Origin: a virus
Lineage: Duplodnaviria > Caudoviricetes
Direction: 5' to 3' (one strand)
DNA length: 64,000 nt
IMG/VR virus record: IMGVR_UViG_3300037361_000044
Coordinates: 64,001-128,000 of that record
The translations under genes and the position numbers were made by a program. The notes below the pieces were generated by a model, which was given only the letters and a program-made list of their open reading frames with translations, was not told the origin of the DNA and did no database searches. This document shows, one piece after another, positions 3,323 to 64,000 of this stretch; position 1 is the first letter of the stretch; every line of letters begins with the position of its first letter.

Positions 3323-3357
3323 CTCTCTTATCCCCGAAAGGGTGCTACCCTTGCCCT

Positions 3358-3630
3358 ATGTCCGGCAAGCTCATTGAACTTCCCCGCAGACTCGAGTGGA
3401 AACCGATTGAGACCTGGATCGGACGGGTCAAGGGCACGGGCCTGTGCACGAAGGTCTCGGAGAAGCTCGAGGGTGCTGGCTTCGTATGGGAGGCGTGGAG
3501 TGGCTGCTCACTGGTTGCTGCCGGGGAAGCTCCAGACATGCTTGCGGGGCGTAAGGCCGCGGAAGAAGCTCTGGAATCGGGAGTGGTGGTTGTGCGCCCC
3601 TTGCCTTCCTCGAACAAGGGCGTACCTTGA
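3358..3630 (+). CDS. Hypothetical protein
   Basis: TGCTACCCT extended -10 ends 6 nt before the ATG. Confidence 0.6.
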   Translation: MSGKLIELPRRLEWKPIETWIGRVKGTGLCTKVSEKLEGAGFVWEAWSGCSLVAAGEAPDMLAGRKAAEEALESGVVVVRPLPSSNKGVP

Positions 3631-3682
3631 TTGGTGATGGATGGGGATGCCGCAGTCAGTGGCACTCCATCTGTCCCGTTTT

Positions 3683-3714
3683 GGGGGCTACAAGAAAGCG
3701 GGTTTCCCCGCCTC
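3683..3714 (-). terminator. Intrinsic terminator with TAGCC tail
   Basis: GCGGG-GAAA-CCCGC then TTTCTTG-TAGCCCCC. Confidence 0.75.
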
Positions 3715-3720
3715 CCTGCA

Positions 3721-3936
3721 TCAAGACTTGCTGCGAGCATGCCGCCGTGGCGGCCGTTCGAAGCTGGCTCCGCACCAAGGACAGAACTTCACAGCCACCT
3801 ACTCAATGGCGTAGCCCCGTATCACAGCTCCGCTTCCCCAATCCTCTGCCAGAAGTTGTACGTGCTGATGATATGGAAAAGGGCTGGGTGTATCGGCTAG
3901 GCGTAGGTACTTCTTTCCCGATTCACAGCAGTCCAT
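3721..3936 (-). pseudogene. CC...FCPxCG small protein with an in-frame TAG
   Basis: Translates as MDCCES...YAIE*VAVKFCPWCGAS...; TAG at 3801-3799; ends just before a terminator. Confidence 0.6.
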
Positions 3937-4183
3937 GTTGTTCCGTCGGTAGGGTGATGTCCACTAGGTCCAGGTCGAAAGTGGTGAGCTTGGTGCGCAC
4001 GCAGCTGGCGTTCAGGTCGTCCCAGGTGAGGCCTTCGCCATGCCCGTGCGTGGGTTGGTCACACCTGGAGGCACACTCGGCAGCATGGGCACAGGATTGC
4101 CGCTTCTCTTTGAAGTTCCCAACGCACTCGGGTGCGGTGTAGGAGAAGAGTAGTCCAAGGCAGTGTGGCTTCTGCGAGTTCAC
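3923..4183 (-). CDS. Cys4-domain protein
   Basis: PxC(L/F)GxxFSxxxxECxG...C...C domain shared with 4602..5696. Confidence 0.65.
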   Translation of the reverse strand: MNSQKPHCLGLLFSYTAPECVGNFKEKRQSCAHAAECASRCDQPTHGHGEGLTWDDLNASCVRTKLTTFDLDLVDITLPTEQHGLL

Positions 4184-4605
4184 AGCTCCACCTCGCTGAC
4201 CAGCTCAACTATGCTGGCTGCTGCCGTGCTGCTGAAGTCCCAGAGTGCATCTCGACGCTTCTGGTGCTGCACAGGGTCAAGTCCTCGAGGACGTACAGCA
4301 GCCGTGGTGATCCAGGAGCGGGCGGCCTCGAGCGCCTCATCCAGGTCTGAGCAGTGTCCGTGAGTACCAGCGCGATCCTTCTCCCACAGCCTTGCGTCGG
4401 CCACGGCCCTGGCCAGGATGTAGTCCCTTGACTCCCCTTTGAGCTCCTTGGCCACCACCGCCAAGTAGCTTCGAACGTAACCGACCAGCATGTACTTCAG
4501 GGAAGCACTGTGCCAAGCGTCTGTGAGCTCGCTCGCGGTTAGTTCACTCGGTGTCCCCGCTATAGGTCGTAGAGTCTTGCGTGTCTGCAGGTCTGAGTCG
4601 GTCAT
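4180..4605 (-). CDS. Hypothetical protein
   Basis: AAGGAG RBS and a GGCATAAG motif upstream. Confidence 0.7.
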   Translation of the reverse strand: MTDSDLQTRKTLRPIAGTPSELTASELTDAWHSASLKYMLVGYVRSYLAVVAKELKGESRDYILARAVADARLWEKDRAGTHGHCSDLDEALEAARSWITTAAVRPRGLDPVQHQKRRDALWDFSSTAAASIVELVSEVEL

Positions 4606-5696
4606 GGTGTGTCTCCTTCTTCTCTCTTATGCCGGAAACCGGCTCTCAGTTGCACCAAGTGCTGTTGGCTGTTCTCCTTGCAACCCTTCCATGCGTCGCA
4701 TTCAGGTACATCCGTTCTCCCTAAGCACTCCACTGCCGTTGCCGAGAAGGATTTCCCGAAGCATGGCGGCATAGTAGCGGACGAGCCAGAGCGGATCTTG
4801 CAAGCTCTGTGCAGGTCACAGGCTGGCTTGTACGGACTGGTGCCGCACTTGGTACTACCCACACAATCGGGTTCCTTAGTTGAGAAGTGTATTCCAAAGC
4901 AGGCCGGGGGTAGGGACGGCGTTGAGCTGCGTGGCAACTCCGTTGCAGCCGTTGCAGTGTTGTAGACTTTGGCTGCGATGTTCTCTTTGATGATGGTGCG
5001 AGCTTTGTCCTTGAGCTGTTGCAGCTCCTTAGCAGCCGCTTGTTGCTCGAGTTCCTTCTTCTGCAGCAGCTTCTGTCGTTGTGCTTCTTTACGGGCCGCC
5101 GCCTGGGTGCGTAACTCCACTGCGCGCAAATCTTCTACGAAGAGTCGGTCTGCTCTCTCTTCTGGGGTTTCATTGATCCAAGGAATGGCCAGTACGCGCT
5201 CAGGGGGTTTCTTGAATCCTTCCTCCCAGTGGGGGTCGAAGTCAGACGCCAGCGCGCTTGCTTTTTCCTCTTCTTCCTCTTCATCCTCAGGTTCCTCGGT
5301 TTCTGGGGTCCACGCGCCAAGCACCTTCTGCATTTCCTTGCGTATATCCTCTTGCAGGATCTGCAACGAATCCTCGGACCACAGCGTGCCGTAGGTCTCG
5401 TAGTCCGTTGCACGCTTCGACTTGCGGTGTTCACGTCCGTCCAAGATCATGCCCCGATACAACTCGTCGCGGCACTCATGGCACATTGGTGAATGCCCGG
5501 CTTTCATGGAGGCACGAATCTGGCTAAGTGGTCTTTGTGCGTATCGTCCGCAGGTGCATTGCAGCATCCATACGTTTCTACCCGCATAGTTCTCTACAAT
5601 GTGCAGAGCGGTCAGCTCGCCAAACCGGCGCCCCTTCACACCATCTTCATCCAGCGCCAGCTTCTCCTCTGGCAGTACCTGTGCTGTAGCTTGCAT
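4602..5696 (-). CDS. Multi-domain Zn-binding protein
   Basis: N-terminal GRRFGELT...WMLQCTCG module typical of phage HNH/AP2-associated domains, acidic linker, coiled coil, two Cys4 repeats; no HNH core seen. Confidence 0.7.
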   Translation of the reverse strand: MQATAQVLPEEKLALDEDGVKGRRFGELTALHIVENYAGRNVWMLQCTCGRYAQRPLSQIRASMKAGHSPMCHECRDELYRGMILDGREHRKSKRATDYETYGTLWSEDSLQILQEDIRKEMQKVLGAWTPETEEPEDEEEEEEKASALASDFDPHWEEGFKKPPERVLAIPWINETPEERADRLFVEDLRAVELRTQAAARKEAQRQKLLQKKELEQQAAAKELQQLKDKARTIIKENIAAKVYNTATAATELPRSSTPSLPPACFGIHFSTKEPDCVGSTKCGTSPYKPACDLHRACKIRSGSSATMPPCFGKSFSATAVECLGRTDVPECDAWKGCKENSQQHLVQLRAGFRHKREEGDTP

Positions 5697-5708
5697 AGTG
5701 GCTCCTTC

Positions 5709-5723
5709 GTTGTACTTATACCG
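5709..5723 (-). promoter_or_regulatory. GGNATAAG-class promoter motif
   Basis: CGGTATAAGTACAAC, identical to the 15-mer at 10836-10850 (+). Confidence 0.65.
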
Positions 5724-5739
5724 TAAATACATGGAATTT

Positions 5740-5776
5740 GGGGGCTACGAAGAAACGGGTTGTACCCGTCTCTTGT
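5740..5776 (-). terminator. Intrinsic terminator with TAGCC tail
   Basis: GACGGGT-ACA-ACCCGTT then TCTTCG-TAGCCCCC. Confidence 0.7.
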
Positions 5777-5810
5777 GAGCTACTATCGTCAAGCTCAACC
5801 GATGCCAAAC

Positions 5811-6194
5811 CTATTGGTGCAGTCGGTTCATCCAATCGAGCAGGATGATGTCCTCCGCAATGTCCTCCTCCAGCTCGGTGGCGCGCTTCTCCAGCATAGC
5901 GAGAACGTCGTCCCGATCCTCCTCGGGCATGTCCATGATTCGGTAGTACTCGCCGACAGACAAGGCAATCGCCGCTTCCTTCCCGTCGTTGCCCGTATTC
6001 ATGTCCAGCACGTATTTGGTGCTCAGGGCATGGAGGAGCGCGGCGGCAACCTTGGTGTCATCGACGTACACGCGACTATCCAGAAGCATCAACATGACAT
6101 CTGCCGGGATTGCTCGAATCCTGGCTTTGACGTCAATCTCCGGCTTGTCGTTGGCTGCTGAGGTTGGTGCTACTGGTTCTGCTTCGAAACACAT
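5811..6194 (-). CDS. Hypothetical protein
   Basis: AGGAG RBS; GGGATAAG motif at 6240-6247. Confidence 0.7.
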   Translation of the reverse strand: MCFEAEPVAPTSAANDKPEIDVKARIRAIPADVMLMLLDSRVYVDDTKVAAALLHALSTKYVLDMNTGNDGKEAAIALSVGEYYRIMDMPEEDRDDVLAMLEKRATELEEDIAEDIILLDWMNRLHQ

Positions 6195-6262
6195 GTGGTT
6201 CTATTCTCCTGGCGAGGGGGTTCTGTTCCTCTCACATCTCTTATCCCTGTTTTCCACGGTTT

Positions 6263-7249
6263 TTAGCGGCTCACAGTCTTTCCCTTGCTCCGTGGTGTAT
6301 TTTTGAACGCCTTGTTCAGAATGGTCGCTGGGTAAACGCCAACCGCGCGGCGCGCCCCGTTGATCTCCTCAGTAGCCGTCTTTGGTGGCTTGTGCCCGTA
6401 CTTGTCGATGAACAACGCGGTCGCGGCTCTACCCAGGGAGCTGTTGGCGACTGGAGCGTGTTCTGGCGTGTGGTTGCTGCGCCAGCTGGAGATGCTGTAC
6501 AAAGGTGCGCTTGGCGCAAGAGTGGCTGAGGGAGGATCTGTTTGCGCTGTCGAGGCAGTTGGCGTAACCACCACTATAGGCTTTGGCTTCTTCGCCTTGG
6601 CCGCGGCACCCTTGTTGGCAAGGGCCTTTTCACAGGTGGTTATGACCTCAGCCATTTGGGTTGTTATGGCGCGTGCCCTGTCTTCTAGTGAGGTTGCCTC
6701 CTCCAGCACCTGTTGCGGGCTTTCCAGCTCTGCTAGCTGCCCGCGCAGATCTTTTATGGCGTCCGTGTGTACGCGTACTTCTCGTTTCAGCTCCTGCACG
6801 TCCCCTGCTACAGCATCTAGGCTTGGGGCGACAATGATGCCTTGCTCCTGCTGCACAAGGGCCGTAGTCCGGTTGTACTCCTCCACAGCTAGTACATGGT
6901 TGAGCAGTAGGAAGAATGCTTTGACGTACTGTACGAGCAACGCACTGGCATTGGGGGTGTCCGACTTGCCGACGAGGAACATGACCTGGGGCTGGTTGAA
7001 GGCCATCTCTTCGAAGTCACGGGTAGCTCCTTGTCCCGCCTTGAGCTTGACCTGTACGGTACAGGTCTTGCCCAATTCTGCGAGTTTTTCGGCATGTCTG
7101 ACCGCCAGCTGCCTCAATGTGTCCTTGTCCTTGTACCCCAGCAGGTGGGCGAGGTCGGTGAGGCTGATGCGGGCTTGCTCTATGGCTTCCACCGTGGTCT
7201 CAGCCAGGTGGAATGGGATGCTGTTCTTGACGATTACGATGTCGGTCAT
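6263..7249 (-). CDS. Phage antirepressor-like DNA-binding protein
   Basis: ISLTDLAHLLGY N-domain, coiled coil, C-terminal LGR...KYGHKPPK...VGVYP domain; AGGAG RBS. Confidence 0.65.
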   Translation of the reverse strand: MTDIVIVKNSIPFHLAETTVEAIEQARISLTDLAHLLGYKDKDTLRQLAVRHAEKLAELGKTCTVQVKLKAGQGATRDFEEMAFNQPQVMFLVGKSDTPNASALLVQYVKAFFLLLNHVLAVEEYNRTTALVQQEQGIIVAPSLDAVAGDVQELKREVRVHTDAIKDLRGQLAELESPQQVLEEATSLEDRARAITTQMAEVITTCEKALANKGAAAKAKKPKPIVVVTPTASTAQTDPPSATLAPSAPLYSISSWRSNHTPEHAPVANSSLGRAATALFIDKYGHKPPKTATEEINGARRAVGVYPATILNKAFKNTPRSKGKTVSR

Positions 7250-7317
7250 GGTTCTCCTGGCAGTTGGATGTTCTGCCCTCAGGTTGCTTATCCCTGTTCT
7301 GCCTGCGCTTTTCGACG

Positions 7318-7351
7318 CAGAAAGGCCCCCACCGGCAACCGATGAGGGCCT
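7318..7351 (-). terminator. Intrinsic terminator without TAGCC tail
   Basis: AGGCCCTCATCGG-TTG-CCGGTGGGGGCCT then TTCT, downstream of the S53 gene. Confidence 0.6.
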
Positions 7352-7422
7352 ACTTGCAAGCAGCTTGGGGTCGACTGTAAAGTTTTGGACCCCTGATTGT
7401 AAAGTTTCTGAACAGCCGGTCG

Positions 7423-8586
7423 CTAAACGGTCTTGCCATCCACGGTAACCGACAAGGCATCGGTGACCACGATGAGGCGGGTGGTTGCCGTCGGCGCGGG
7501 GACAGGTACTGGAGTCGGCGTAGGCGCCACGGATCCTTGTAGGGCAGCGAGTAGCTTGGTGCCAACAGGCACGCCCATACCCGTGCAGCAATCGTAGCCT
7601 GCGCGCGCGGCGTAGGTGCCATTGTTGCCCACGGTGATGTCACGGCTCCAGCCAGCTAGGGCGTAGAGCTTATCGTTCATGAAGCCAACGTTCTTGCCCA
7701 AGGCTTGGCCCAAGCAGACTGAGAGGGCCGCCCACATGGGAGCAACTGCGCTTGTTCCTCCAATTACCAGCTGCTGCCCATCCACGATGATGACCCAACC
7801 GGTGTCGGGATCGGCGTTGCCACCCACGTCGGGTACACCGCGGTATTTGGCACCTGGTACGTTGGCTAATCTTTGCCAGTCCGGAAGGAGGAAGTGGGAG
7901 CTCACACCCCCGCCAGTGGCACCACCAGCGCTGCCGTCATTCCATACCGTCTCGTTGATGGGTGAGGTGGCGACCAGTGCTGTGCCTCCACAACCAAGCA
8001 CGTACGGGGAGCTGGAGGGGAAGTCTACATTCTTGCCAGGAAGCCCATCACCGGACCCGTTGTCCCCAGCCGCGGCTGTGACCGTGATTCCTGCGGCGGC
8101 AGCCTTAGCGAAGGCCGTGTTGAAACTGGCCATGACCGCGTCGGTCCAGTCCTTCTCTGGAGCTCCCCACGAGATGCTGATGGCATCCATACCGTCGGTG
8201 ATGGCCTGGATGATGGCCGCTAGGAATCCTGCGTCGGTGTTCGGAGCTGTGTAGCAGTGGAGCTCAGCACCTGGGGCCATGCCACCGATGACGCACAAGT
8301 CGAGCATCACTTCGCCGTCGGCCCCATCTGGTCCGTCCGAGGTGTTTTTGGCACCTTGAATCGAATGGAACAACACGGGCTTGACCGTGAGGCCCAAGCT
8401 CTTGAAGTAGGTGTCGAGGTCTGCTTGGTTGTAAGCTCCCCCAAGTTCGATGACGGCAACTTTCTTGCCGGTACCGGTGGAGCCTGGCGGGAATCCGTAG
8501 AAGGCAGCCAACTGTTTCGGAGTGTAATTGGTCCCGGTAGTGTGGTTCTTGAACCGTCCGTGCTTGAGGTATGAACGTAGTTTCAT
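7423..8586 (-). CDS. Sedolisin/kumamolisin-like S53 serine-carboxyl peptidase, catalytic domain only
   Basis: EVMLD (Glu/Asp), SISWG, AAGDNG, GTSAVAP (Ser) and the Ca site DITVGNN...GYD..TGMG. Confidence 0.92.
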   Translation of the reverse strand: MKLRSYLKHGRFKNHTTGTNYTPKQLAAFYGFPPGSTGTGKKVAVIELGGAYNQADLDTYFKSLGLTVKPVLFHSIQGAKNTSDGPDGADGEVMLDLCVIGGMAPGAELHCYTAPNTDAGFLAAIIQAITDGMDAISISWGAPEKDWTDAVMASFNTAFAKAAAAGITVTAAAGDNGSGDGLPGKNVDFPSSSPYVLGCGGTALVATSPINETVWNDGSAGGATGGGVSSHFLLPDWQRLANVPGAKYRGVPDVGGNADPDTGWVIIVDGQQLVIGGTSAVAPMWAALSVCLGQALGKNVGFMNDKLYALAGWSRDITVGNNGTYAARAGYDCCTGMGVPVGTKLLAALQGSVAPTPTPVPVPAPTATTRLIVVTDALSVTVDGKTV

Positions 8587-8587
8587 C

Positions 8588-8635
8588 TTGGGTACTACTT
8601 CCTTTTGGCGGAGTGCCTAGGTAAGTAGTACCCAA
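8588..8635 (-). promoter_or_regulatory. RBS-sequestering hairpin
   Basis: Perfect 13-bp inverted repeat TTGGGTACTACTT/AAGTAGTACCCAA ending 1 nt before the S53 ATG. Confidence 0.7.
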
Positions 8636-8657
8636 ACTGCAGCTACGGTCAATCTGG

Positions 8658-9260
8658 TTACTTCAAATCATGCGCGGCTGCAAAGGCATGGTGCTCTGCC
8701 TGGTCCCATTGGTTTGTGGCATTTCCATGAATGACGTGTCCGAGCTCGTGCTCGAAGGCAGTACTTTCAAGTGGATCTGTCATCTTGTCGTAATCCACCA
8801 TGAAGCAGTGTGTGCCGCTGATTGTGAAGCCCTTGCACAACCTGCCAGCCATTGGCGACACCGTTTCGTTCAGTGTCTTGTCGAACCACACCCAGTTGAT
8901 CTCCGATTTGACTATGGCCTCTGCGTTGGGGTGGTACGGGGTCCATCCTTCGATGGTTCTCTTGATGAGGGTATCCAGCACGTAATTGTCGTGCGGAAGA
9001 AGGTAGCCACCAGGGCTAACCATGAAACCGTAACGTGGGTACCAGATGAACTGGGAAAGCCACTTCTTACGCTGCAGCGCAAAGACTAGCCAGATACCGA
9101 TGAAGCAGAGGCCAACTACAGCAGTGAGGCACAGCCCCTCTTTTGCGTGTGGGCCCTGCACGCCGGAGAAGGCTGCGTAGATGAGTAGCCCTAGCGACAC
9201 GATGCCGCCAAGACCGATGGTGAGTAGATCGACTAATCGAAACCAGCTGGGCTTCTTCAT
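8658..9260 (-). CDS. Membrane-anchored HExxH metallopeptidase-like protein
   Basis: Two N-terminal TM helices; HELGH motif. Confidence 0.7.
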   Translation of the reverse strand: MKKPSWFRLVDLLTIGLGGIVSLGLLIYAAFSGVQGPHAKEGLCLTAVVGLCFIGIWLVFALQRKKWLSQFIWYPRYGFMVSPGGYLLPHDNYVLDTLIKRTIEGWTPYHPNAEAIVKSEINWVWFDKTLNETVSPMAGRLCKGFTISGTHCFMVDYDKMTDPLESTAFEHELGHVIHGNATNQWDQAEHHAFAAAHDLK

Positions 9261-9277
9261 GATGCGAGGCTAACACT

Positions 9278-9309
9278 GGGCTAAGAAAAAGCCCACAGGC
9301 GGCCCTTTC
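9278..9309 (-). terminator. Intrinsic terminator with TAGCC tail
   Basis: Imperfect stem then TTTTTC-TTAGCCC. Confidence 0.55.
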
Positions 9310-9317
9310 CCAGCGCT

Positions 9318-9809
9318 TTAGTTGGCCTCTGCTCCTGGAGGTGCCGGCGCCGCCCCAGGCTTCGGTCCAAGAATGACGCCGAACAGGTTCTTCAGCGCGT
9401 TCTCTCGGTCTACTCGCATCTGGTCGACGTCCGCGTTCTCGTAGTGCGCCATCGCGTGGGCGACGTACATCGAGCCCTTTACGTGGGCTCCTGCAGCAAC
9501 GCGCCCAGCAAGCGTCAAGAGCATGCACAGTAAATCCTGCGCCACCATGTCCATCACGCAGTCCAACGCCTCGGTTGAGATCGGCGTACCTGCGTCCGCT
9601 TGCGCTAGGCCCACTGCCTCGCACCCATCAATGCCACTGGTCATGGCCACGCTGTAGGCGTTGGCGAGTTTCTCTTCAAAGTCATCAATGGCCGCGGCGT
9701 AGATCGCCACCAGTCGCTCAGCGATCTCGGGAGCAACGAGCTCCTTCAGCTTCTCCCTTAGTCCATCTGCGCCATTGATCTCAGACACATCCTTACTTGA
9801 CTTGCTCAT
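9318..9809 (-). CDS. Hypothetical protein
   Basis: 163 aa ORF; AGGTG RBS. Confidence 0.7.
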   Translation of the reverse strand: MSKSSKDVSEINGADGLREKLKELVAPEIAERLVAIYAAAIDDFEEKLANAYSVAMTSGIDGCEAVGLAQADAGTPISTEALDCVMDMVAQDLLCMLLTLAGRVAAGAHVKGSMYVAHAMAHYENADVDQMRVDRENALKNLFGVILGPKPGAAPAPPGAEAN

Positions 9810-9844
9810 ATCATCACCTGGTTTCTGGCCGTTTTGCTACCTAG

Positions 9845-10771
9845 TCACTTCTTCAGCTTGTTCAGACGTTCTGTTGTGTTCGTATAGTCAAGGCCTTCGA
9901 TGATGGCGATTAGCCGTTCACGGCCGTCCATAGATAGGTTGGTGGACGCCAGCACGATGTCTCGTGCCTTCTTGGCGTTTGGTATGAAGAACAGCTCAAT
10001 ACGCTTTTTCAACTTGGCGAAGGCGGTACCCATGTCCTCAGGGGTTTCAGGTAACTCGTGGTCTGTCTTCACTGCGGGTGGATCCACTGGGGTCGCTGCA
10101 GCCTTATCTGGTTCTTTGTTGTATTCCAACTCTGTTTGCTGAGGAGCACGCTTGCTTTTATCGAGCTTGTCCCATTGCAGATTTAGAGCCCATTGCACAC
10201 ACGCGTAAGCTCTATTCGTTTCGCTTGGATTGTAGCGATCCTCCGTATTACCGCAGCTACTGCGATCTGGGTTTGCGTACGGAGCGCCCCATGCGTACTT
10301 CAAGATCTCTGCGTCATCTTCGTAGATGTGCTTGGCTGCCTTGGTTCCAAGCTTTAGCTGCTGCGTCAGACGGTACTTCAAAGTTTGCTTGGACTTGTTG
10401 CCTCGGCTGCTTGTTAGCTTTCGTCCTGCAACAGCCAGCCATAGGTCATCGAAGCCGTTTCCATGCACCATGTCTTGATGCAGAAGCACAAATAGAACCA
10501 CAGCGCGTGTACGCGGTGAGCAGGCAGTAAATTCCTCTCCGCGTGTGGTGTACCCTTTTCCAAACTCGAGAATAGCTGTTTGACTACGCTCAGGTGGAAC
10601 GCACGCCCACTCAGGTATGGTCAGCTCCTTGTCTGGCTTGGCTGCTAGCCTTTCTTTGTAGCCTTCTTTTTGCTGCGCACGCGCAATGTCCTTGTCGAAC
10701 TTCACGCAGTACTCAGAACCAGATTCTACCTTAGGTTTACGGACTCGTTTGACTGTTCTTTGCTCTGGCAT
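9845..10771 (-). CDS. Hypothetical protein
   Basis: AGGAGG RBS; GGAATAAG motif upstream. Confidence 0.75.
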   Translation of the reverse strand: MPEQRTVKRVRKPKVESGSEYCVKFDKDIARAQQKEGYKERLAAKPDKELTIPEWACVPPERSQTAILEFGKGYTTRGEEFTACSPRTRAVVLFVLLHQDMVHGNGFDDLWLAVAGRKLTSSRGNKSKQTLKYRLTQQLKLGTKAAKHIYEDDAEILKYAWGAPYANPDRSSCGNTEDRYNPSETNRAYACVQWALNLQWDKLDKSKRAPQQTELEYNKEPDKAAATPVDPPAVKTDHELPETPEDMGTAFAKLKKRIELFFIPNAKKARDIVLASTNLSMDGRERLIAIIEGLDYTNTTERLNKLKK

Positions 10772-10808
10772 ATCCACCTCCTGGTGGGCTGCAATTACAA
10801 CCAAGTTG

Positions 10809-10850
10809 CTTATTCCGGCAACTTGCCACCGATTGCGGTATAAGTACAAC
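10809..10850. promoter_or_regulatory. Divergent pair of GGNATAAG motifs
   Basis: GGAATAAG (-) at 10816-10809 and GGTATAAG (+) at 10837-10844, exactly at the strand switch. Confidence 0.7.
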
Positions 10851-11156
10851 ATGCAGGTCAGGATCATCCCCTATGCTGAGCTCTTCGTCACCGTCACTAT
10901 GACCTTGGACGAGACGGTGGCCTTGAGCTCCGCATTAAGTGGGCTACTCGATGGGACCTCTACGGAGTTGAGAAAGCTGCTCGAGTACGCACTGGAACGA
11001 GCGGCCCAGATGCAAGAGAGAGGAAAGAATGCCAAAGTGGACAATACTGGACAAGCAAACAAGGGAGCACCTAGGAGAGGTGACGGCGGACATTCAGAAG
11101 GACGCGCTGAGGTACGCCCAGCAGGAGTTCGGAAACGACGGAAGTCGGTACGTTGA
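10851..11156 (+). CDS. Hypothetical protein, possibly leaderless
   Basis: ATG 6 nt after GGTATAAG. Confidence 0.55.
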   Translation: MQVRIIPYAELFVTVTMTLDETVALSSALSGLLDGTSTELRKLLEYALERAAQMQERGKNAKVDNTGQANKGAPRRGDGGHSEGRAEVRPAGVRKRRKSVR

Positions 11157-11451
11157 GGTGACGCTGCACTTGCAAGATCGGCCACCAGTGACACGTCCTC
11201 CGGGATTCACCTTGAGTCAGGAAGAGGTGGAGCTTGCGCTTCTCACCTGGGCCCGAGCCTTCAAGAATGTGCCAGAGGGGTTCAAGGTGAAAGTGGTTGT
11301 ACTGGCCAACCTCACGAAGCCAGCCATGCTGGCCCAGGTCTACGATGCCATGGAGAAGCCAGAGCCTGGGATCCACTACGATGAGGATCCGGAGGAGCCA
11401 GAGGACCAGGTGGAGGGATTTGGTCCAGGGGAGGCTCCAGAGGCAGGGTAG
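11029..11451 (+). CDS. Hypothetical protein with acidic tail
   Basis: GAGG RBS; 140 aa. Confidence 0.7.
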   Translation: MPKWTILDKQTREHLGEVTADIQKDALRYAQQEFGNDGSRYVEVTLHLQDRPPVTRPPGFTLSQEEVELALLTWARAFKNVPEGFKVKVVVLANLTKPAMLAQVYDAMEKPEPGIHYDEDPEEPEDQVEGFGPGEAPEAG

Positions 11452-11606
11452 CTACAAGAGGCATCCGAAAGGGGTGAAAAGAGGGTCACTACTGAACATG
11501 CATCACGTAGTCCAGGGAGGCGCTTTTGCGGTTTGACCCCAAAGGTGTTTTTGGAGATTTGCTATAAAACAAGCCTTCCTGGAACGCTAACTGATCATTC
11601 TCTATT

Positions 11607-57572: not shown

Positions 57573-57610
57573 GGCTAAGAGAGAAGGCCCCCACAGGTGT
57601 AGGGGCCCTC
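57573..57610 (-). terminator. Terminator with TAGCC tail abutting the polA ATG
   Basis: GGCCCC...GGGGCC stem then TTCTCTC-TTAGCC-ATG. Confidence 0.65.
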
Positions 57611-57626
57611 CACCTTTCTGTGCTCG

Positions 57627-58832
57627 TTAGGCTGTTGGTCGGTACGGGCGCGTGCCCTTGCTTATCGGTTGACGGGTACCCTTCGGCACCGTGTCGGTCA
57701 TGACGTCGTCATCACCCGGAGGTACACCGAACAATGACTCTTGGCGTTCCAAACTGTCCGGCATGAAGATCTTCGGCAGGTCCAGCGGTTGCCGCAAGTC
57801 TTCTCCGTACATGTCTGCAATCGGCCGCGGCCCCATGGCCCCCGTGATTTGCAGAGCGGTCTGGTTACCGCCGTCCTTGGCAGTGGTTTCAACCCGCTTC
57901 ACCTTCAAGTCGAAGTCGAATAGGGTTGCCGGCTCTCCTTGATCACAGTTGTTACACTGGACCATGTCCTCGAGGTAGTCGGTAGCGCCGCAATGCGGGC
58001 AACGAGCTTCCTCAGTACGTAGCCGCTCCAAGTCTTCCTCATCCAGGGCCGTAGTGGACATGTCCACCACTGCTTCACCACAGTGTTGACAGATGAATGC
58101 CAGCTCTTCGATGGTGTCCGTACCGCCACACGTGTGGCAATTCTTGGCTAGGCTGTCTGCAAACTCTTGCAGCACTGCCCAGTGACCATAGGTCATTGAC
58201 CAATGCATCACGTGCCCTTCTTTGCGCTCGTACCCAGCCGCCGCGTACTCATCGTTCCCGCGTTTGGACCCCTTTACCCAGTTGTAGTAGGGCTCGTGGG
58301 TATTCGGGTTGATCTTCTCGTTGCCGTTAGCGTCCCTGTCAGGGACTTTGTAGAACGGTGCCTGTACCAGCACCGAGAAGGCCCACTTCTCACTGCGACG
58401 CATAGCATTTGGGTGCTTCGCCTTGTGCTTGTTGCGCTGGCGCCACTCCCACCAGTACCAATCGGCGGCGAGGCAAGGTTCTCCCTTACCTTTGAACATG
58501 CCGAGAGGACCTTCGGAGCCGATAACGCCGCGTTGCCTCACCCCATGGAAGTAGTCAACGTACTTCCAGAATGGCGTGAGGTCCGTGATGATTTGACCGG
58601 CATCATTGTAGTAGTAGTCTCTGTTGTCTTGGTCGATCCTGGGTGTCGGGTACGAGCCCTGTAGTATGCGGATGATGTCCGCAGGTCCGGTAGTGGGCGG
58701 CAAGTAGCGGTTGCGGAAGTTTGCTCCGCCTCCACCACCTCCCCCTCGAGGCGCACGCTGGGTGCTCCTCTTCATTTGCTGTCGTAGGTTAGCTCTGCCT
58801 GGTGTTACAGGTCGACTTTTTCCGAATGCCAT
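57627..58832 (-). CDS. Putative ssDNA-binding protein with Zn-finger insertion
   Basis: Between primase and polymerase; aromatic-rich, four CxxC pairs, acidic C-region. Confidence 0.55.
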   Translation of the reverse strand: MAFGKSRPVTPGRANLRQQMKRSTQRAPRGGGGGGGANFRNRYLPPTTGPADIIRILQGSYPTPRIDQDNRDYYYNDAGQIITDLTPFWKYVDYFHGVRQRGVIGSEGPLGMFKGKGEPCLAADWYWWEWRQRNKHKAKHPNAMRRSEKWAFSVLVQAPFYKVPDRDANGNEKINPNTHEPYYNWVKGSKRGNDEYAAAGYERKEGHVMHWSMTYGHWAVLQEFADSLAKNCHTCGGTDTIEELAFICQHCGEAVVDMSTTALDEEDLERLRTEEARCPHCGATDYLEDMVQCNNCDQGEPATLFDFDLKVKRVETTAKDGGNQTALQITGAMGPRPIADMYGEDLRQPLDLPKIFMPDSLERQESLFGVPPGDDDVMTDTVPKGTRQPISKGTRPYRPTA

Positions 58833-58872
58833 TTTTGTTCTTCCGTGGCCACTTAGGGGCCGTTGTATTTGC

Positions 58873-59844
58873 TCAGAATAGAGCCATCAGTTGGTAGTCC
58901 GTCGCGGACTGAATCAGCCCTTTTACTTCCTCACGAGGAACTCCGTCGGGCTGCAACGCATCGTATTCCACAATGCGTACGTCGGGGCAAAATGTAGCCA
59001 GTTCTTTGCTGATTGTTATGGTCCCGTCGATGCCGGCGTCGTCGTTATCCAGCATCAGGATGAATGGTCCTCCCATCTTTTGTAGTATCCAACGCTGTGC
59101 CCAGCTTAGTGTTTTGGTCATCAGACCGACTACGTTGGGAACTTGTGCCTGCCAGACCCACATGCAGGCCTTGAAGCCTTCCACGATTACAATCGGTACG
59201 TTGGAGGCCTTCATGACCTCCGGGAATACCACGTGGGCATTCCAGAGCAGGTTGCTCTTGTCCGTGTCGTAAGGCGGAAGCTCCCAGTGCCGGTACTCCT
59301 CCTTGTAAACCTTGTACCTGGACTCCATGTGTTCCAACCGCGCGCGCCCGCTGATGCCAACTAGGTTGCCGTGCAGGTCACGCAGAGGGTAGGTTGTCCG
59401 GTTGTGGTACTCGTCCACGCCTATACCGAAGTGCAGCAGAGTCTCCTCATCGAACCCATCATCCAGCAGGTCCTCAGGGCACTTGTGGAACATCCCCAAG
59501 ATGTCACCGGGTATGTGGGCATTGGTGTCGTGCACCACCACGCCTGGCTTAGTGGGGTCCGGTGGCGGTGGAAGGTTGTCCTTCAGGGACTTCAGCGTTT
59601 GCCCGTAGTGGTAGCGGATCTCGTCGGAGGTTAGCCCAACCTTCCTGAGGAAGCTGTTGAACGTGCCCTTCTCACCACACGCGTAGCAGATGTAGAGTCC
59701 GTTCTGCGTGTTCATGGCGAAGGAGGGGCTGTTGTCGGTATGGAAGGGGCACCTCATGATGACGTTGGTAGGGCCCGCTTTCCTGATGGGCCCATCTATG
59801 TACTGCTCCAATGTGGACAGCACTTTGTCAGACGCTGCTTTCAT
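58873..59844 (-). CDS. dnaG: DNA primase
   Basis: CPFH..SPSF..CYAC zinc finger; TOPRIM VEG and DND.AG. Confidence 0.92.
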   Translation of the reverse strand: MKAASDKVLSTLEQYIDGPIRKAGPTNVIMRCPFHTDNSPSFAMNTQNGLYICYACGEKGTFNSFLRKVGLTSDEIRYHYGQTLKSLKDNLPPPPDPTKPGVVVHDTNAHIPGDILGMFHKCPEDLLDDGFDEETLLHFGIGVDEYHNRTTYPLRDLHGNLVGISGRARLEHMESRYKVYKEEYRHWELPPYDTDKSNLLWNAHVVFPEVMKASNVPIVIVEGFKACMWVWQAQVPNVVGLMTKTLSWAQRWILQKMGGPFILMLDNDDAGIDGTITISKELATFCPDVRIVEYDALQPDGVPREEVKGLIQSATDYQLMALF

Positions 59845-61307
59845 CTAACCCTCATTCCTCTTGGTACGGATAGGTTCTGCAGGCGGCTCTGCGTGGCCGC
59901 CTGCGTCGTCCTCGCTATCTCGCTCTTTCTGGCCTTGATCGCCGCAGGGTCCTTCGATGAAGGCTTCTTCGAGGGAGGCATGACCCCACCCACGTCCTTC
60001 TCGTTGCTGCGGTCATCGCGCTGCTTGATGTTCAGCGCTTCACGTTCGTCCAAACATTGGATGAAGCTGAAGTCGGTGGCGCACTCGGCAAAGATGCGGC
60101 AGCCGCTGAACTGCCACTCACGAGAACCGCCAACGATAAGACTGGCTATGTCCTTCCCGCCAAACTCTTCCATGCGGTCTTCGTTCACCACACGCATAGC
60201 AGCCGTGGCGTCCTGAGCGATGGCGTCTGAGAATGCGATTTCGTCCAGGTTTGCGTTCTTGTGGCCGGCTGCTGCGCGTGTTGCTTGGATAGTCGCCACC
60301 ACCGGGGTCTCCGTCGCTAGAATCATCTGCCGGATGTCTCTGGAGATGTTCTGCACTCGGAAATTGTCCTTTTGGTTCTTGCCACCCTTGCTGTCGCTCA
60401 GCAGGTACATACCGTCAATGAACACAATGTCGGGCTTGTACTTGTCTACTTTGGCCTGTAGCCAATCAACTGTGTCTCCTCCGCCTCTACTGTCCTTTCC
60501 GTCCAGGGCTATCATGTTCTGGTGGTCGCGGACGTCTTTTGCAGCCTCCACGATCTGCTGCAGGGTTTCTCGCTCATCCACGGACAGCTCACCTTTACGT
60601 AGCCGTTGGTACTGGACCTGGGCCATGCACGCGCCTACGCGTTTGAATAGGTTGTCTCCTGTCATCTCTTTGGTGTAGATGAGCGGGCGCTTCCCTTGAA
60701 GAAACATGCAGGCTATGAAGTAAGCCAACATCCAGGACTTCTTACTCTTGGGCCTTCCGTAGAACACAATGTAGTCGTCGCTCTGCACCCCTTGCGTTGC
60801 GTCGTTGAATGGCTCCCACGGCCACTTGGCGATGGATAGGTCTTCACCCAGCGCCTTGCGGTCGTGGTCTATCAGTGAGCGGGATAGGGACTCTGCGAAG
60901 CTGACGTCGTTTCTTTGCCCATACCCTACAGCCAGGATGTTGCGCTGTATGCGCTCCATGGCAGCAATAGCAATCTCCATGGGATCGCCTACGCCCGTGG
61001 CTATCTGACGCACCACGGTCTGCAGCTCGAGCTTGTGCTTCTGCTGGCGTACCTGTTTGCATAGCGCCTCCAGGGACATCGTCTGGTCGCTGCAGAACAC
61101 GAAGTCGGGGTACAGGTTCCTGATAGCGTTCGTACCCAGCATTGACCTCTTGAATTGCGGGTCACGCAGCGCATACATCATTCCATCAAAGATGGCGTGC
61201 CCCTCGTCCGTGATGAAGTCGTCTTCTCTGATGCCCCAGTTCAGTGCCTCATTGAGCTCGCCATGTTCAATGATGTGGCTGAGTAGTTGCATTTCGGCGT
61301 TAGCCAA
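59841..61307 (-). CDS. dnaB: DnaB-like replicative helicase
   Basis: GRPKSKKS, EM, VFIDG, Q..R and SDAIAQDA. Confidence 0.88.
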   Translation of the reverse strand: MANAEMQLLSHIIEHGELNEALNWGIREDDFITDEGHAIFDGMMYALRDPQFKRSMLGTNAIRNLYPDFVFCSDQTMSLEALCKQVRQQKHKLELQTVVRQIATGVGDPMEIAIAAMERIQRNILAVGYGQRNDVSFAESLSRSLIDHDRKALGEDLSIAKWPWEPFNDATQGVQSDDYIVFYGRPKSKKSWMLAYFIACMFLQGKRPLIYTKEMTGDNLFKRVGACMAQVQYQRLRKGELSVDERETLQQIVEAAKDVRDHQNMIALDGKDSRGGGDTVDWLQAKVDKYKPDIVFIDGMYLLSDSKGGKNQKDNFRVQNISRDIRQMILATETPVVATIQATRAAAGHKNANLDEIAFSDAIAQDATAAMRVVNEDRMEEFGGKDIASLIVGGSREWQFSGCRIFAECATDFSFIQCLDEREALNIKQRDDRSNEKDVGGVMPPSKKPSSKDPAAIKARKSEIARTTQAATQSRLQNLSVPRGMRVR

Positions 61308-61373: not shown

Positions 61374-61441
61374 GTCAATGAGTCCTGTCAGACCCCAATA
61401 CCTTGTGGTGGGTACCCTGACAGGTCACCACGTCTTGGGGG

Positions 61442-61780
61442 TTATACCGAGGGCGCCTCGGTGGCTGTACCTGCGTGTTCCCCGATCCCACCAGGGTCGG
61501 GTGGGAAGAGCGGCCCGCCGGAAGACGCCACAGCCCCGGCTCCTTCCGTTTCGAACACCAGGCTGGCCAGGTCCTGCTCCATGCTTGCCCGCAGCTCCTC
61601 GAGTAGCGCCAGCGTGGTTGGAGACCAGTGTGAGCACGTGGTTCTACCGTAGGTCGACCCAGTTCTGGTATCGATGAAGGCACCGTGGCCGACCAGCGAG
61701 TGCCCTCGGTTGGCGAAGTTGATCTCCTCCATCTCCAGCAACGTCACAGCATTGAATCTAGGTGAGCCTTCTACCGGCAT
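61442..61780 (-). CDS. Hypothetical protein
   Basis: GGAGG RBS. Confidence 0.65.
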   Translation of the reverse strand: MPVEGSPRFNAVTLLEMEEINFANRGHSLVGHGAFIDTRTGSTYGRTTCSHWSPTTLALLEELRASMEQDLASLVFETEGAGAVASSGGPLFPPDPGGIGEHAGTATEAPSV

Positions 61781-61781
61781 G

Positions 61782-62114
61782 TCACCCTCCCTGTCTGGCG
61801 GTCTCTTGTTCCGCCGCCGCTTGTAGTTCCGCACAGAGTTCGTTCCAGCCGTCGGTCATCAGCTCGTGCGCCTTGTAGAACGCCAGCTCCCCTGCCTTGT
61901 TGATGGCAGTTTCACTTTGGTCACAAGCCAGGGAGACGTTCGCCGATACTTTGACTGCACCGAAGTCGGAGCTTTGCGACACGCTGATGCTGACCCGCGC
62001 AGGCTGCAGCTCTTTGTTGGACCAGAGCGCTGTGAATTTGTCCTCTGTCAGTTGTCCTCTGGTGCCGCTTTTACCTTTGGCCTTGGGCGTGCGCTCAGTC
62101 GTGAAGTCGTTCAT
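61782..62114 (-). CDS. Hypothetical protein
   Basis: ATGA-coupled ORF. Confidence 0.65.
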   Translation of the reverse strand: MNDFTTERTPKAKGKSGTRGQLTEDKFTALWSNKELQPARVSISVSQSSDFGAVKVSANVSLACDQSETAINKAGELAFYKAHELMTDGWNELCAELQAAAEQETARQGG

Positions 62115-62572
62115 AGGATGATCTTCTTCGGTATGTGGTACGTGCGCGCTGTGGTTTGAAACTCCGCCAAGCATTCTTGCGGAATCTTGCCACTGGCGAT
62201 GGCTGCTTCGACGCGGTTCTTGTCCACGGCGTATACCGTCTTCTTGGAGACAGAGCCACCGCACTGCAGAAAGAGCTCTTCACCAAGCTCTTCGTACATC
62301 TTATCTGCGTCGTTGTTGATCTTGGTACTGTAGTTGTCGAAGGGGCCGCAGGAGATGCCCTTCAAGCGTACTACCTTCTCGGCAGCCTCCAGGGCAGTGT
62401 TGTGCTGCTCCACCAGGTCGTCGAACTGACGGAACACGTCGGGATTGTCTACCCGCAGAGCCATGAGTTGTTCCTGGACGTCCAGGTAGGCACTCACTTC
62501 GGGTATGGCTTCGGCTGGCAGCCGAGCTCCGTTTTCTACGGCCGGTGTGGTCTTCTTCTTTTTAGCCGCCAT
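62111..62572 (-). CDS. Hypothetical protein
   Basis: GGAG RBS; 153 aa. Confidence 0.7.
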   Translation of the reverse strand: MAAKKKKTTPAVENGARLPAEAIPEVSAYLDVQEQLMALRVDNPDVFRQFDDLVEQHNTALEAAEKVVRLKGISCGPFDNYSTKINNDADKMYEELGEELFLQCGGSVSKKTVYAVDKNRVEAAIASGKIPQECLAEFQTTARTYHIPKKIIL

Positions 62573-63407
62573 CTTCAGGCTCCTCTTCTTCCTCGTTACG
62601 TAGGTCGGGGTCGGTGTAGTAGGTGGGCACAATGCCCGTCACTTCCTCATGGTAGCGCCGGTACATCGCTCTGGCACGCTTTAGGTCCTCGGACAGCCTG
62701 TCGAAGCTATTGCCACGCCCGTAGTCCAAGATCGAATTGTTGGCGTCCTCTGGGTCTACCGTCGGTATCATGTGGTACCCAACAGGGAATGGCTCTACTG
62801 GCCGTTGCCACACGCCCTTGAACTTACGCTTCCAGACTTGCTTCTTCGCGGATAGCGACGGGACGAATCCAACCCCGGGGACTGTGATCATCATGGACTT
62901 GACCATGTTGCTCAGCTTTACCGAAGCTCCGGCTAGCGCCGAGGCTGCATGCTGGCCTAGCGCCACAATCACCACAGGGTCGACTATGTAGACCTCCTCG
63001 ATGAGCCGCTGTCGACAGGCCGTCATCTGCGGAATGTTGGGTGGCTGATCCGCCAGCATGGGTCCTTGGTCTTCGCCACGCCAGTTGGTCCGTCGGCGCT
63101 CCTGCATCTTGTCGTCCAGCATCGGAGCACAGCTTCGGCACGCTACCAAGTTGGTGTAGTAGGCTGGCTGGATCTGCAGCTGACGGACCATCTTCAGCAG
63201 TAACTGCCCTCCGGAGCTAGAGAAAAGGCCACGCTCTTGCTCATCCCTGGAGTTAGGAGCGGAGCCGATGAACATGATGCCGTTTGGGTCTCCACCACCT
63301 AGCAACACCGGCAGGTTTATGGGGCGGTACATGTGAAGGTCACATGCGCTGCAGCCGTCCCATTCTGCCGCTAGTTCTTCCATGGTTTTTCGTGCGTCTG
63401 TAGGCAA
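62562..63407 (-). CDS. Family-4 uracil-DNA-glycosylase-like protein, degenerate active site
   Basis: CxxC.L, IMFIGSAP, TNLVACR, C..RL.EE...VDP.VIVALG..A. Confidence 0.8.
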   Translation of the reverse strand: MPTDARKTMEELAAEWDGCSACDLHMYRPINLPVLLGGGDPNGIMFIGSAPNSRDEQERGLFSSSGGQLLLKMVRQLQIQPAYYTNLVACRSCAPMLDDKMQERRRTNWRGEDQGPMLADQPPNIPQMTACRQRLIEEVYIVDPVVIVALGQHAASALAGASVKLSNMVKSMMITVPGVGFVPSLSAKKQVWKRKFKGVWQRPVEPFPVGYHMIPTVDPEDANNSILDYGRGNSFDRLSEDLKRARAMYRRYHEEVTGIVPTYYTDPDLRNEEEEEPEDGG

Positions 63408-63408
63408 G

Positions 63409-64000
63409 CTATCCTCCTGTGCGTGGTGTCCTTATCCCCACCGTCGACCCTTGTCTGCGGGATAGAGACGGGTGGTCTACCTGCAGGTACTTGAATGGGC
63501 CGCCTTCATCCACGGGCCAATCCCTGAGGTGTCTTCGTAGTTTCATGCACTGCCCTATCAGTGGCCCAACATTGTCCTCCAAGAAAACCAGCTCAGAGTT
63601 GTGCTTGTCTCTTGGGCGCCCCATCACCTGCTGCAAGACGTTCTTGTCCGACATGGGCTCGCACACAACGATGGCTGACAGCTTCTTATCGTCCAACCCC
63701 TCTCTGCCGTACTTCATAATGGCAAAGATGACTTGGCGCTCTGCCAGCATGCGCATGCGGTCTGCAGGTTTTACTGCCTCCGTGAATAGTCCGGCATCAC
63801 TCTTCTTGCCCAGCAGTTCTAGCAGGAAGGCGCGCTGCCTACGCCTGTACTCCTTCTCTGTCTTCTTCCAGACCTCGTACTGGTCCAGCATCTGCTGATA
63901 CTTCTCTTCACGTGCGGTGAACGCTTCACGTTTGTTCTGTGGCAGGCTCTTGGTCAACGCTAGGTTCCTGCGAATCTCCTTCAGGGTGGCGGTGACTTTC
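63409..64000 (-). CDS. SF2 helicase C-terminal part (5' end outside window)
   Basis: GREGLD (motif V) and QQVMGRPR (motif VI). Confidence 0.7.
   Translation of the reverse strand, partial: KVTATLKEIRRNLALTKSLPQNKREAFTAREEKYQQMLDQYEVWKKTEKEYRRRQRAFLLELLGKKSDAGLFTEAVKPADRMRMLAERQVIFAIMKYGREGLDDKKLSAIVVCEPMSDKNVLQQVMGRPRDKHNSELVFLEDNVGPLIGQCMKLRRHLRDWPVDEGGPFKYLQVDHPSLSRRQGSTVGIRTPRTGG

Follow-up and report, generated by a model that had tools for sequence, protein, structure and literature searches.

A GGnATAAG element of a 190-kb phage is most likely a promoter read by the phage's own sigma factor

Introduction

In one stretch of phage DNA, the octamer GGnATAAG stands again and again a short distance before start codons, which raises the question of whether this element is a promoter and, if so, what reads it. 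The stretch analyzed here (the window, 64,000 nucleotides (nt) long) comprises bases 64001–128000 of the 190,298-base-pair (bp) IMG/VR virus record IMGVR_UViG_3300037361_000044, which is rated complete by CheckV; positions given below are those of the window unless they are marked as genome positions. We consider the element to be, most likely, a phage-specific promoter for a sigma factor encoded by the phage itself. The motif provides a precise definition of promoters in a large clade of ~190-kb phages, most of which are uncultured and for which Salmonella phage Arash is an easy laboratory model.

Occurrence and orientation of the motif

The octamer GGNATAAG occurs 12 times in the window, compared with 3.38 ± 1.64 times in 100 dinucleotide-preserving shuffles of it (maximum 7; none of the 100 reaches 12). 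The original prediction, which had been read from the letters of the window alone, had listed twelve copies with their positions and strands, all of which were recovered exactly, and the enrichment over shuffled sequence that it had named as a check is accompanied by proximity to gene starts and by a consistent strand orientation. When the distance is measured from the motif end to the most plausible start of the next open reading frame (ORF) on the same strand, 11 of the 12 copies have a start codon 6–45 nt downstream, in agreement with the limit of about 50 nt that had been proposed.

A similar distribution is observed in the whole genome. Genes were called with a self-trained codon model, which gave 222 genes and 88% coding sequence, the calls being rough; on this basis, 20 of the 29 genomic copies of GGnATAAG are intergenic, though only 12.3% of the genome is (binomial P = 2e-12). 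Every promoter-like copy (24/24 genome-wide) faces the next gene. The intergenic DNA of the genome shows no enrichment of single-base variants of the octamer, and the variant with T at the last position, GGNATAAT, has no occurrence in the genome. About 24 genomic copies appear to be functional, 11 of which are in the window. A few more carry one change, with GAGATAAG at genome 140732, which is also present in relatives, and GGGAAAAG at genome 130783, which heads the − strand block entering the right end of the window.

Promoter architecture and predicted start site

Alignment of 23 promoter-like genomic copies on the octamer revealed a second box, c-G-(C/G)-A-A-a, located 15–16 bp upstream, with a spacer offset of 0 in 16 copies and of ±1 in the other 7. 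If nATAAG is set as the −12 to −7 hexamer, GG falls at the extended −10 place, the upstream box at −35 to −30, and a pyrimidine/purine pair at −1/+1. With this numbering, the full consensus reads cGCAAa (−35 to −30), a spacer of 15–16 bp, GG (−14/−13), nATAA (−12 to −8), G (−7), six bases, a pyrimidine at −1, and a purine at +1. In the upstream box, A is found at −31 (relative position −17) in 22/23 copies and at −32 (relative −18) in 16/23, and C or G at −33 (relative −19) in all 23, so that the "(C/A/T)AA" previously noticed upstream of most copies is real and stronger than had been claimed. The pyrimidine at −1 (position 14) and the purine at +1 (position 15) are each present in 22 of the 23 copies. 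This layout has every geometric feature of a sigma70-family promoter. Compared with the −10 element of that family, A−11 is invariant, but −7 is an invariant G instead of T; thus, the element appears to resemble a −10 element in its working, yet it misfits the primary-sigma consensus.

The position of the transcription start is suggested by a small group of genes. The arrangement motif-N6-ATG is found at three sites, namely window 10837, genome 37136, and genome 185017, where 0.3 would be expected (P = 0.004); the sites span window 10837–10853 (+), genome 37136–37152 (+), and genome 185008–185024 (−), and the gene caller had set the start of the last gene (genome 184096–185046) 36 nt too far upstream. 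In genome G002, the orthologue of window ORF 10851–11156, an ORF conserved in five relatives, retains GGCATAAG-N6-ATG, and orthologues of the gene at genome 37150 in loci L020, L021, L023, and L025 start 7–9 nt past the motif. In these genes, no space is left for a ribosome-binding site, and their mRNAs are probably leaderless, as they would be with a start at the place predicted by the geometry. A transcription start about 6 nt after ATAAG, as had been expected, is therefore supported indirectly, since it would fit both the leaderless genes and the pyrimidine/purine pattern.

In the aligned copies, the predicted start is followed by a purine-rich stretch resembling GAGGAAC. Conserved forms of this word at +1 to +10 of the predicted transcripts are GAGAGGAAC, GAGGGAAC, and GAAGGAGA, and examples are located at 6225–6233 (−), 7272–7280 (−), and 23735–23743 (−). 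The word is retained also where a separate ribosome site serves a start codon 30–45 nt further downstream. Possible roles are a requirement on the initial transcribed sequence, standby binding of ribosomes, or stabilization of the RNA.

The same stretch, together with the closeness of the motif to start codons (median 22 nt), would suit a different explanation, in which the motif is no promoter and instead acts in the RNA of the 5′ leader as a processing site, a translational operator, or a ribosome standby site. However, the second box stands at a fixed 15–16 bp upstream, where leader RNA would not yet exist, the genes that start 6 nt after the motif leave no room for a ribosome site, and copies are placed back to back at strand switches. 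We regard an RNA-level role as very improbable, and a copy before a tRNA gene in a relative, described in the next section, speaks against it as well.

Conservation in related phages

Relatives were retrieved from IMG/VR by a scan based on an alignment of sigma factors, which yielded 24 loci; a scan of the same database with the single sigma protein gave no matches, nor did a megablast search of window 1–20000 against the phage collection. In metagenomes, 85 homologues of the sigma factor were detected, many of them on contigs of 186–203 kb, and the closest are 83–88% identical. The octamer was counted over whole genomes together with a control, the reversed octamer pattern. Motif/control counts were as follows:

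G001 18/4; G002 26/10; G003 27/15; G004 36/15; G005 25/13
G006 20/6; G008 16/6; G009 23/6; G012 42/18; G013 22/2
Salmonella phage Arash 43/15, with 36 copies on the − strand, nearly all of them GGTATAAG

Enrichment was weak or absent in G007 (5/4), G010 (26/19), and G011 (30/21), and the exact octamer is not enriched in Vibrio phage D69 (24/26) because the D69 variant has T at −13. In D69 (OZ195729.1), GTTATAAG replaces GGnATAAG, and the top words are TTATAAG, GTTATAA, and TGTTATA; changes in the D69 sigma factor could be set against this natural variation at −13. An unbiased search for 7-mers in the 70 nt upstream of called genes ranked the motif first in all four genomes examined, the top word being GGGATAAGAG in the phage of the window, GGGTATAAG in G012, TGGTATAAG in Arash, and TGTTATAAG in D69. 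In the same four genomes, AA at −32/−31 and the pyrimidine/purine pair are present.

Conservation is also observed at orthologous sites, where both boxes are retained while spacers and flanks diverge. Such sites include the head of the sigma operon in L020–L025, the position immediately before the sigma gene in L027, L033, L035, and L037, and a divergent pair 9 kb beyond the sigma operon site. In five relatives, a wider divergent pair (genome 37064/37136) is kept as well. The departures from the host consensus, G for T at −7 and GCAA for TTGACA, are kept across GC contents of 45–64% and across different hosts, Salmonella and Vibrio among them. In Arash (locus L045), a copy of GGTATAAG at 59089–59096 (−) lies 12 nt upstream of a tRNA-Asn gene in a large tRNA cluster, which favors control of transcription rather than of translation; tRNA genes are probably also among those driven by this promoter type of the phage.

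Candidate readers of the promoter

A gene for a sigma factor of 256 amino acids (aa) is located outside the window at genome 26952–27722. Its product matches Pfam Sigma70_r3 with 42 bits, above the cut-off, and PHROG 351 with an E-value of 1.6e-15, and has weak matches to regions 2 (residues 80–106) and 4 (residues 230–253) in the correct order. A profile of the sigma family aligns best to SigA/RpoD over regions 2.3–3.0 (E = 4e-13) and matches solved group-3 sigma factors over their full length; the alignment of the phage sigma does not preserve the aromatic pair of region 2.3 (WW in SigA). In the AlphaFold model, with a predicted local distance difference test (pLDDT) score of 82, all top Foldseek matches are sigma factors, of which Bacillus subtilis SigD is the first. 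With regions 2, 3, and 4 in order and a predicted sigma fold, the protein belongs to the sigma70 family. Sigma70_r4_2, the extracytoplasmic function (ECF) type, had no match anywhere in the genome.

The genome also encodes a 2133-aa protein (genome 140812–147213) in which Rpb2 domains are followed by Rpb1 domains, that is, a fused beta-beta' RNA polymerase. The supposition that genes for a phage sigma factor or RNA polymerase would lie outside the window was therefore borne out for both; which factor reads the motif, as well as the start site and the timing of expression, we infer from sequence. Throughout the clade, the sigma gene sits behind this promoter type. In Arash, the only cultured relative with proteomics, mass spectrometry of purified virions detected the sigma factor Gp10, with a coverage of 100%, along with subunits of the RNA polymerase, beta' Gp216 among them (PMC10585845).

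A bipartite promoter with an extended −10 element is what a sigma factor with domains 2, 3, and 4 reads. Considering these features together, we think it likely that GGnATAAG promoters are read by the phage's own sigma factor, most likely with the phage polymerase. The choice of core enzyme leads to a first alternative, in which the sigma factor would read the motif on the host core RNA polymerase, as in the cases of T4 gp55 and SPO1 gp28, and the phage polymerase would serve another promoter class. Phage sigma factors that redirect the host core are the known norm, as is stated for jumbo phages without their own polymerase (PMC7598289), and the polymerase gene itself has no motif copy upstream. 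However, the phage carries a complete beta-beta' enzyme, and the Arash virion holds both the sigma factor and polymerase subunits, so that we find this arrangement rather unlikely.

The promoter could instead be an early one of the extended −10 type for the unmodified host primary-sigma holoenzyme, with the phage sigma factor reading another set of genes, such as late ones. The bases A−11, T−10, A−9, A−8, and G−14 agree with the extended −10 consensus, T−15 and T−12 do so as well in Arash and D69, and in the classical phage cascade a sigma gene is placed under an early, host-read promoter, just as the sigma gene here follows this motif. Against this stand several observations: G−7 is invariant and the T variant absent from the genome, although T−7 belongs to the pair of bases held by sigma70 in a pocket (PMC7598289); the −35 box reads GCAA in place of TTGACA; T−15 and T−12 are not conserved in this phage; and promoters of the sigma70 consensus are depleted, with 2 found in window 1–20000 compared with 6.6 ± 2.9 expected. 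Moreover, a bipartite layout with an extended −10 element suits a sigma factor with domains 3 and 4, which the phage one has. A host primary-sigma promoter is thus quite improbable.

Among cellular sigma families, the nearest by score is FliA/WhiG. The phage sigma factor reaches 44.6 bits against the corresponding family model (TIGR02479), whose cut-off is 189.6, and the ranking of NCBI families, all far below cut-off, runs from FliA/WhiG through WhiG and SigB/F/G to RpoD. On these scores, the protein is no FliA member, and FliA/WhiG is its best-scoring cellular family. The original prediction had described the motif as resembling the −10 element of the group-3 factor sigma28 and not that of sigma70. 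The first part holds to some extent, since ATAA at −11 to −8 and AA at −32/−31 coincide with the sigma28 promoter (PMC12784957) and FliA/WhiG is the best family. The −10 element GCCGATAA as a whole was not recovered: GCCG is absent and only ATAA is shared, −13 being G and not C, −12 unconstrained, and −15 weakly G; in the comparison with the −35 sequence TAAA, the preceding bases are GC and not CT/TA. "Not sigma70" was too strong, for the extended −10 sequence TGnTATAAT is resembled equally, with G for T at −7. That a host alternative sigma factor of the FliA/sigma28 type reads the motif has little to commend it, given the mismatches just listed and an invariant G−7 that sigma28 promoters do not require; a FliA/WhiG-like sigma factor of the phage's own makes a host factor unnecessary, and not every host is flagellated or expresses FliA. 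We consider such a reader barely conceivable.

Proposed mechanism and its weighing

If the phage's own sigma factor is the reader, GGnATAAG would be the extended −10/−10 element of a phage-specific promoter, whose GCAA box would be contacted by sigma domain 4, GG by domain 3, and ATAAG by domain 2. A−11 would be flipped out, as in all sigma70-family promoters, and the sigma pocket would accommodate G rather than T at −7. The core enzyme would most likely be the single-chain beta-beta' polymerase of the phage, although the host core is also possible. About 24 short transcription units would be headed by such promoters, many of them closed by a family-specific terminator that consists of a hairpin and TTTCTTAGCCC. 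Since the sigma gene stands behind its own promoter type, positive feedback is implied, and the virion would have to bring in the sigma factor unless a first supply is made by another route.

Several points weigh against this explanation. A self-read sigma factor needs delivery by the virion, and a virion sigma factor has been detected in Arash only. The Arash and D69 consensus sequences (TGGTATAAG and TGTTATAAG) match TGnTATAAT at 8 of 9 positions, which makes some use by host sigma70 conceivable. Many non-structural units, e.g., most of the + strand block at genome 37–64 kb, have no motif copy, and the motif is therefore not the sole promoter type. In addition, the intergenic classification depends on our own rough gene calls.

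A bolder form of the proposed mechanism may be put forward tentatively, as something possible but somewhat short of probable. The clade would possess a self-contained transcription system that the host cannot use, in which a virion-delivered holoenzyme of beta-beta' polymerase and FliA-like sigma factor would fire GGnATAAG promoters on DNA entry, G−7 and GCAA being invisible to host sigma70. Sigma feedback, some leaderless first messages, and a matching terminator would complete it. If this is true, a bacterial-type, sigma-dependent holoenzyme would act as an injected viral polymerase, a combination outside both the phiKZ/AR9 scheme and the scheme of host core plus phage sigma factor that have been described (PMC7598289).

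Whichever form applies, the invariant G−7, at a position where almost all sigma70-family promoters carry T, offers a natural experiment on the specificity of the sigma −7 pocket. A compact pair of sigma factor and polymerase with its own promoter and terminator could become an orthogonal expression system. For annotation, the motif hints at the genes that the phage turns on with machinery of its own and permits transcription units to be assigned, with 11 promoters and 6 terminators in this window.

Promoter copies and transcription units in the window

The putative promoters and their predicted targets are as follows:

Promoter 1, 3320–3355 (−): GGGATAAG at 3327–3334, −35 box GGCAAG, predicted start near 3320, context score 31.1; target ORF 3047–3307 (86 aa, no family match) with ATG 19 nt downstream, probably also 2487–3050 and 1964–2500
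Promoter 2, 4619–4654 (−): GGCATAAG at 4626–4633, within the last codons of ORF 4602–5696, context score 26.6; target ORF 4180–4605 (141 aa) with ATG 20 nt downstream
Promoter 3, 5708–5743 (−): GGTATAAG at 5715–5722, context score 29.5; target ORF 4602–5696 (364 aa) with start codon 18 nt downstream
Promoter 4, 6233–6268 (−): GGGATAAG at 6240–6247, −35 box CGCTAAA, context score 35.0; target ORF 5811–6194 (127 aa) with a 45-nt leader that opens with GAGAGGAAC
Promoter 5, 7280–7315 (−): GGGATAAG at 7287–7294, context score 29.8; target ORF 6263–7249 (328 aa), 37 nt downstream, with a weak match to Rha-like regulators (PHROG 518, E = 6e-4)
Promoter 6, 10802–10837 (−): GGAATAAG at 10809–10816, left half of a back-to-back pair, context score 24.6; target ORFs 9845–10771 (start codon 37 nt downstream) and 9318–9809, until the terminator at 9278
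Promoter 7, 10816–10851 (+): GGTATAAG at 10837–10844, right half of the pair; target ORF 10851–11156 (101 aa) with ATG exactly 6 nt after the motif, apparently leaderless
Promoter 8, 13581–13616 (+): GGCATAAG at 13602–13609, −35 box CGGCAAG, context score 21.7; target ORFs 13634–14086 (start 24 nt downstream) and 14073–14555, until the terminator at 14574
Promoter 9, 22878–22913 (−): GGAATAAG at 22885–22892, context score 26.0; target ORF 22318–22845 (175 aa) with start 39 nt downstream, the unit being closed by the terminator at 22200
Promoter 10, 23743–23778 (−): GGAATAAG at 23750–23757, −35 box GGCAAT, context score 33.8; target ORF 22957–23709 (250 aa) with start 40 nt downstream
Intragenic copy, 50751–50786 (−): GGTATAAG at 50758–50765 within the RusA-like ORF 50569–51018, context score 12.5
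Promoter 12, 63424–63459 (−): GGGATAAG at 63431–63438, in the 3′ end of a 923-aa ORF that leaves the window; target ORF 62562–63407 (281 aa) with a TTG start 23 nt downstream, at the head of the replication-gene block

Promoters 6 and 7 form the pair of copies that had been reported to face apart at the 10.8-kb strand switch, and the pair (10809 (−)/10837 (+)) is real; likewise, the 15-mer CGGTATAAGTACAAC said to be common to promoters 3 and 7 is an exact match between 5709–5723 (−) and 10836–10850 (+). Within 10802–10851, the two divergent promoters overlap around the palindrome GGCAAGTTGCC (10817–10827) in such a way that each spacer contains the −35 box of the opposite promoter, and they may therefore compete or share regulation. 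Promoter 10 faces away from the + strand tail/baseplate block, which starts at 23833/23899. The copy at 50758, which had been placed inside rusA, does lie in an ORF that matches RusA-like resolvases (PHROG 140, E = 1.2e-5); given its weak promoter context, it appears to be either a chance occurrence or a weak internal promoter. Among the promoter-like copies, promoter 12 has the weakest context (score 14.3).

The ends of the genome (1–201 and 190098–190298) form a 201-nt repeat identical at 200 of 201 positions, whereas the record is classed by IMG/VR as linear without end repeats. Each repeat contains a non-promoter GGCATAAG.

Terminators

A putative terminator of a type specific to this phage family occurs in 13 copies in the genome; in it, a GC-rich hairpin precedes T-rich TTTCTTAGCCC(C), whose TTAGCC tail is invariant. 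Of these, 10 are intergenic and lie 19–267 nt past a stop codon of the same strand, most of them at 53 nt or less. Those in the window are the following:

28–62 (−): GC hairpin followed by TTCCTTAGCCC, 26 nt past the stop of ORF 64–285 (−)
9278–9312 (−): hairpin and TTTCTTAGCCC, 30 nt past the stop of ORF 9318–9809 (−)
14550–14584 (+): hairpin and TTCGTTAGCCC, 19 nt past the stop of ORF 14073–14555 (+)
21475–21519 (+): strong hairpin (−25.6 kcal/mol) and TTTTTTAGCCC, downstream of ORF 20098/20356–21366 (+)
22200–22234 (−): hairpin and TTCTTTAGCCC, ending the one-gene unit of promoter 9
48874–48908 (−): hairpin (−28.7 kcal/mol) and TTTCTTAGCCC, at the junction of the + strand structural and − strand replication blocks

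Further copies are located at genome 9204, 10381, 136306, and 177646. Several terminators close units that GGnATAAG opens, such as those from 22885 to 22200 and from 10809 to 9278. Canonical intrinsic terminators are not enriched in window 1–20000 (16 compared with 15.5 expected). The word GGGCTAAG was considered as a second promoter and rejected, as it is the reverse complement of the terminator tail.

Regulon and a possible second promoter class

The + strand head, tail, and virion blocks, which include genes for terminase, the major head protein, tail-fibre-like and virion proteins, and the polymerase, account for 49% of the genome and hold 2 of the 24 promoter-like copies (P = 2e-5), the block boundaries being partly inferred; one of the two copies heads the sigma operon. 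Within the window, it is true, as had been noticed, that no copy precedes a structural gene. The units headed by the motif contain mostly small genes without known relatives, some accessory genes, and the sigma operon. For the ten genes directly downstream of the window promoters, Pfam and PHROG searches gave almost nothing, so that the label "non-structural" derives from the lack of structural matches and from position, with no positive annotation. With this meaning of the label, the regulon that the motif appears to define comprises non-structural genes along with the sigma operon, and it may be an early or middle one, as had been proposed.

The replication module (49342–61307 (−)) encodes a DnaB-like helicase, a primase, a family A DNA polymerase with a separate exonuclease subunit, a UvsX-like recombinase, a Cas4-like exonuclease, and a RusA-like resolvase. 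It has no strong motif copy; the weak copy at 63431 is found near it, as is the variant GGGAAAAG (genome 130783) just outside the window.

The head, tail, and polymerase genes, which lack the motif, probably use another signal. In Arash, a second word, cTAAAATA, is found 17–31 nt before + strand genes including the endolysin gene, often back to back with GGTATAAG (sites 30633, 109249, 111110, 137631, 139407, 142696, and 173499). In the phage of the window, cGTGCTA heads + strand blocks at similar places, namely window 23843–23848 (+), before the tail block, and genome 63461, 130850, and 185100. These words, known from few sites, may represent a late promoter class. An enriched word TAAAATA(TAG) is common to D69 and Arash. 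Another candidate motif around GTACATG/AGTACA was enriched in the called intergenic set, yet it was dropped because it had no consistent context.

Comparison with known promoter systems

The sigma28-dependent class-3 flagellar promoters (TAAA-N15-GCCGATAA), such as that of Pseudomonas aeruginosa fliC with (−36)TCTAAAG(−30) and (−15)GCCGATAA(−8) (PMC12784957), are similar to the phage promoter in being bipartite, in ATAA at −11 to −8 and AA at −32/−31, in a G/C pair before the −10 element that serves as an extended −10, and probably in being read by a short sigma factor composed of regions 2, 3, and 4. By family, the factor encoded by the phage is also nearest to FliA/WhiG, and by fold to B. 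subtilis SigD. Unlike those promoters, the phage motif has GGn for GCCG, an added invariant G−7, and a GCAA box for TAAA.

The extended −10 promoters of primary sigma factors (TGnTATAAT) share with it G−14, the bases A, T, A, and A at −11 to −8, T−15 and T−12 in the case of Arash and D69, a predicted start about 7 nt past the hexamer, and the pyrimidine/purine pair at −1/+1. The phage promoter differs in having G−7 for T, a required G−13 (T in D69), and a GCAA −35 box.

The late promoters of T4 (TATAAATA), which are recognized by gp55 and have no −35 box, and the middle promoters of SPO1, which are recognized by gp28, are read by a phage sigma factor on the host core. In these systems, as is proposed here, a sigma-family protein of the phage defines a non-host promoter class and a phage-only regulon, whereas here the phage encodes the catalytic enzyme as well.

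Among relatives, Arash (OQ632216.1; 181 kb) and the Vibrio phages D69, D181, and D148 (~187 kb) have genomes of similar size, and their sigma factors show 31–35% identity across 73% of the query. Arash has genes for beta and beta' subunits of an RNA polymerase, and the paper that reports it describes no promoters (PMC10585845). Arash and D69 differ from the phage of the window in their lower GC content (53% and 45%), in T fixed at −12, and in a weaker, A-rich −35 box; in Arash, the word at the predicted transcript start is TGTAA. No paper describing this promoter was found in the published literature, a full-text search for GGTATAAG gave primers only, and literature on promoters of phage polymerases or sigma factors yielded the phiKZ/AR9 work only. 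A paper on a "moraphage" (PMC12619734) concerns T4-like phages and is hence irrelevant.

The early promoters of the virion RNA polymerases of the phiKZ/AR9 type are AT-rich and have no −35 box, and the enzymes have no recognizable sigma70-family subunit (PMC7598289). Similarities to the present system are a highly conserved motif of about 10 nt near −10 that sequence analysis can detect before presumed early operons, a phage-encoded polymerase that is a relative of bacterial beta/beta', and, in Arash, the presence of the polymerase in the virion; the difference lies in the full sigma70-family geometry and the recognizable sigma factor found here. Large phages have been divided into those with their own sigma-less polymerase and those with a sigma factor for the host core (PMC7598289). 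The clade described here has both a bacterial-type polymerase and a recognizable sigma factor.

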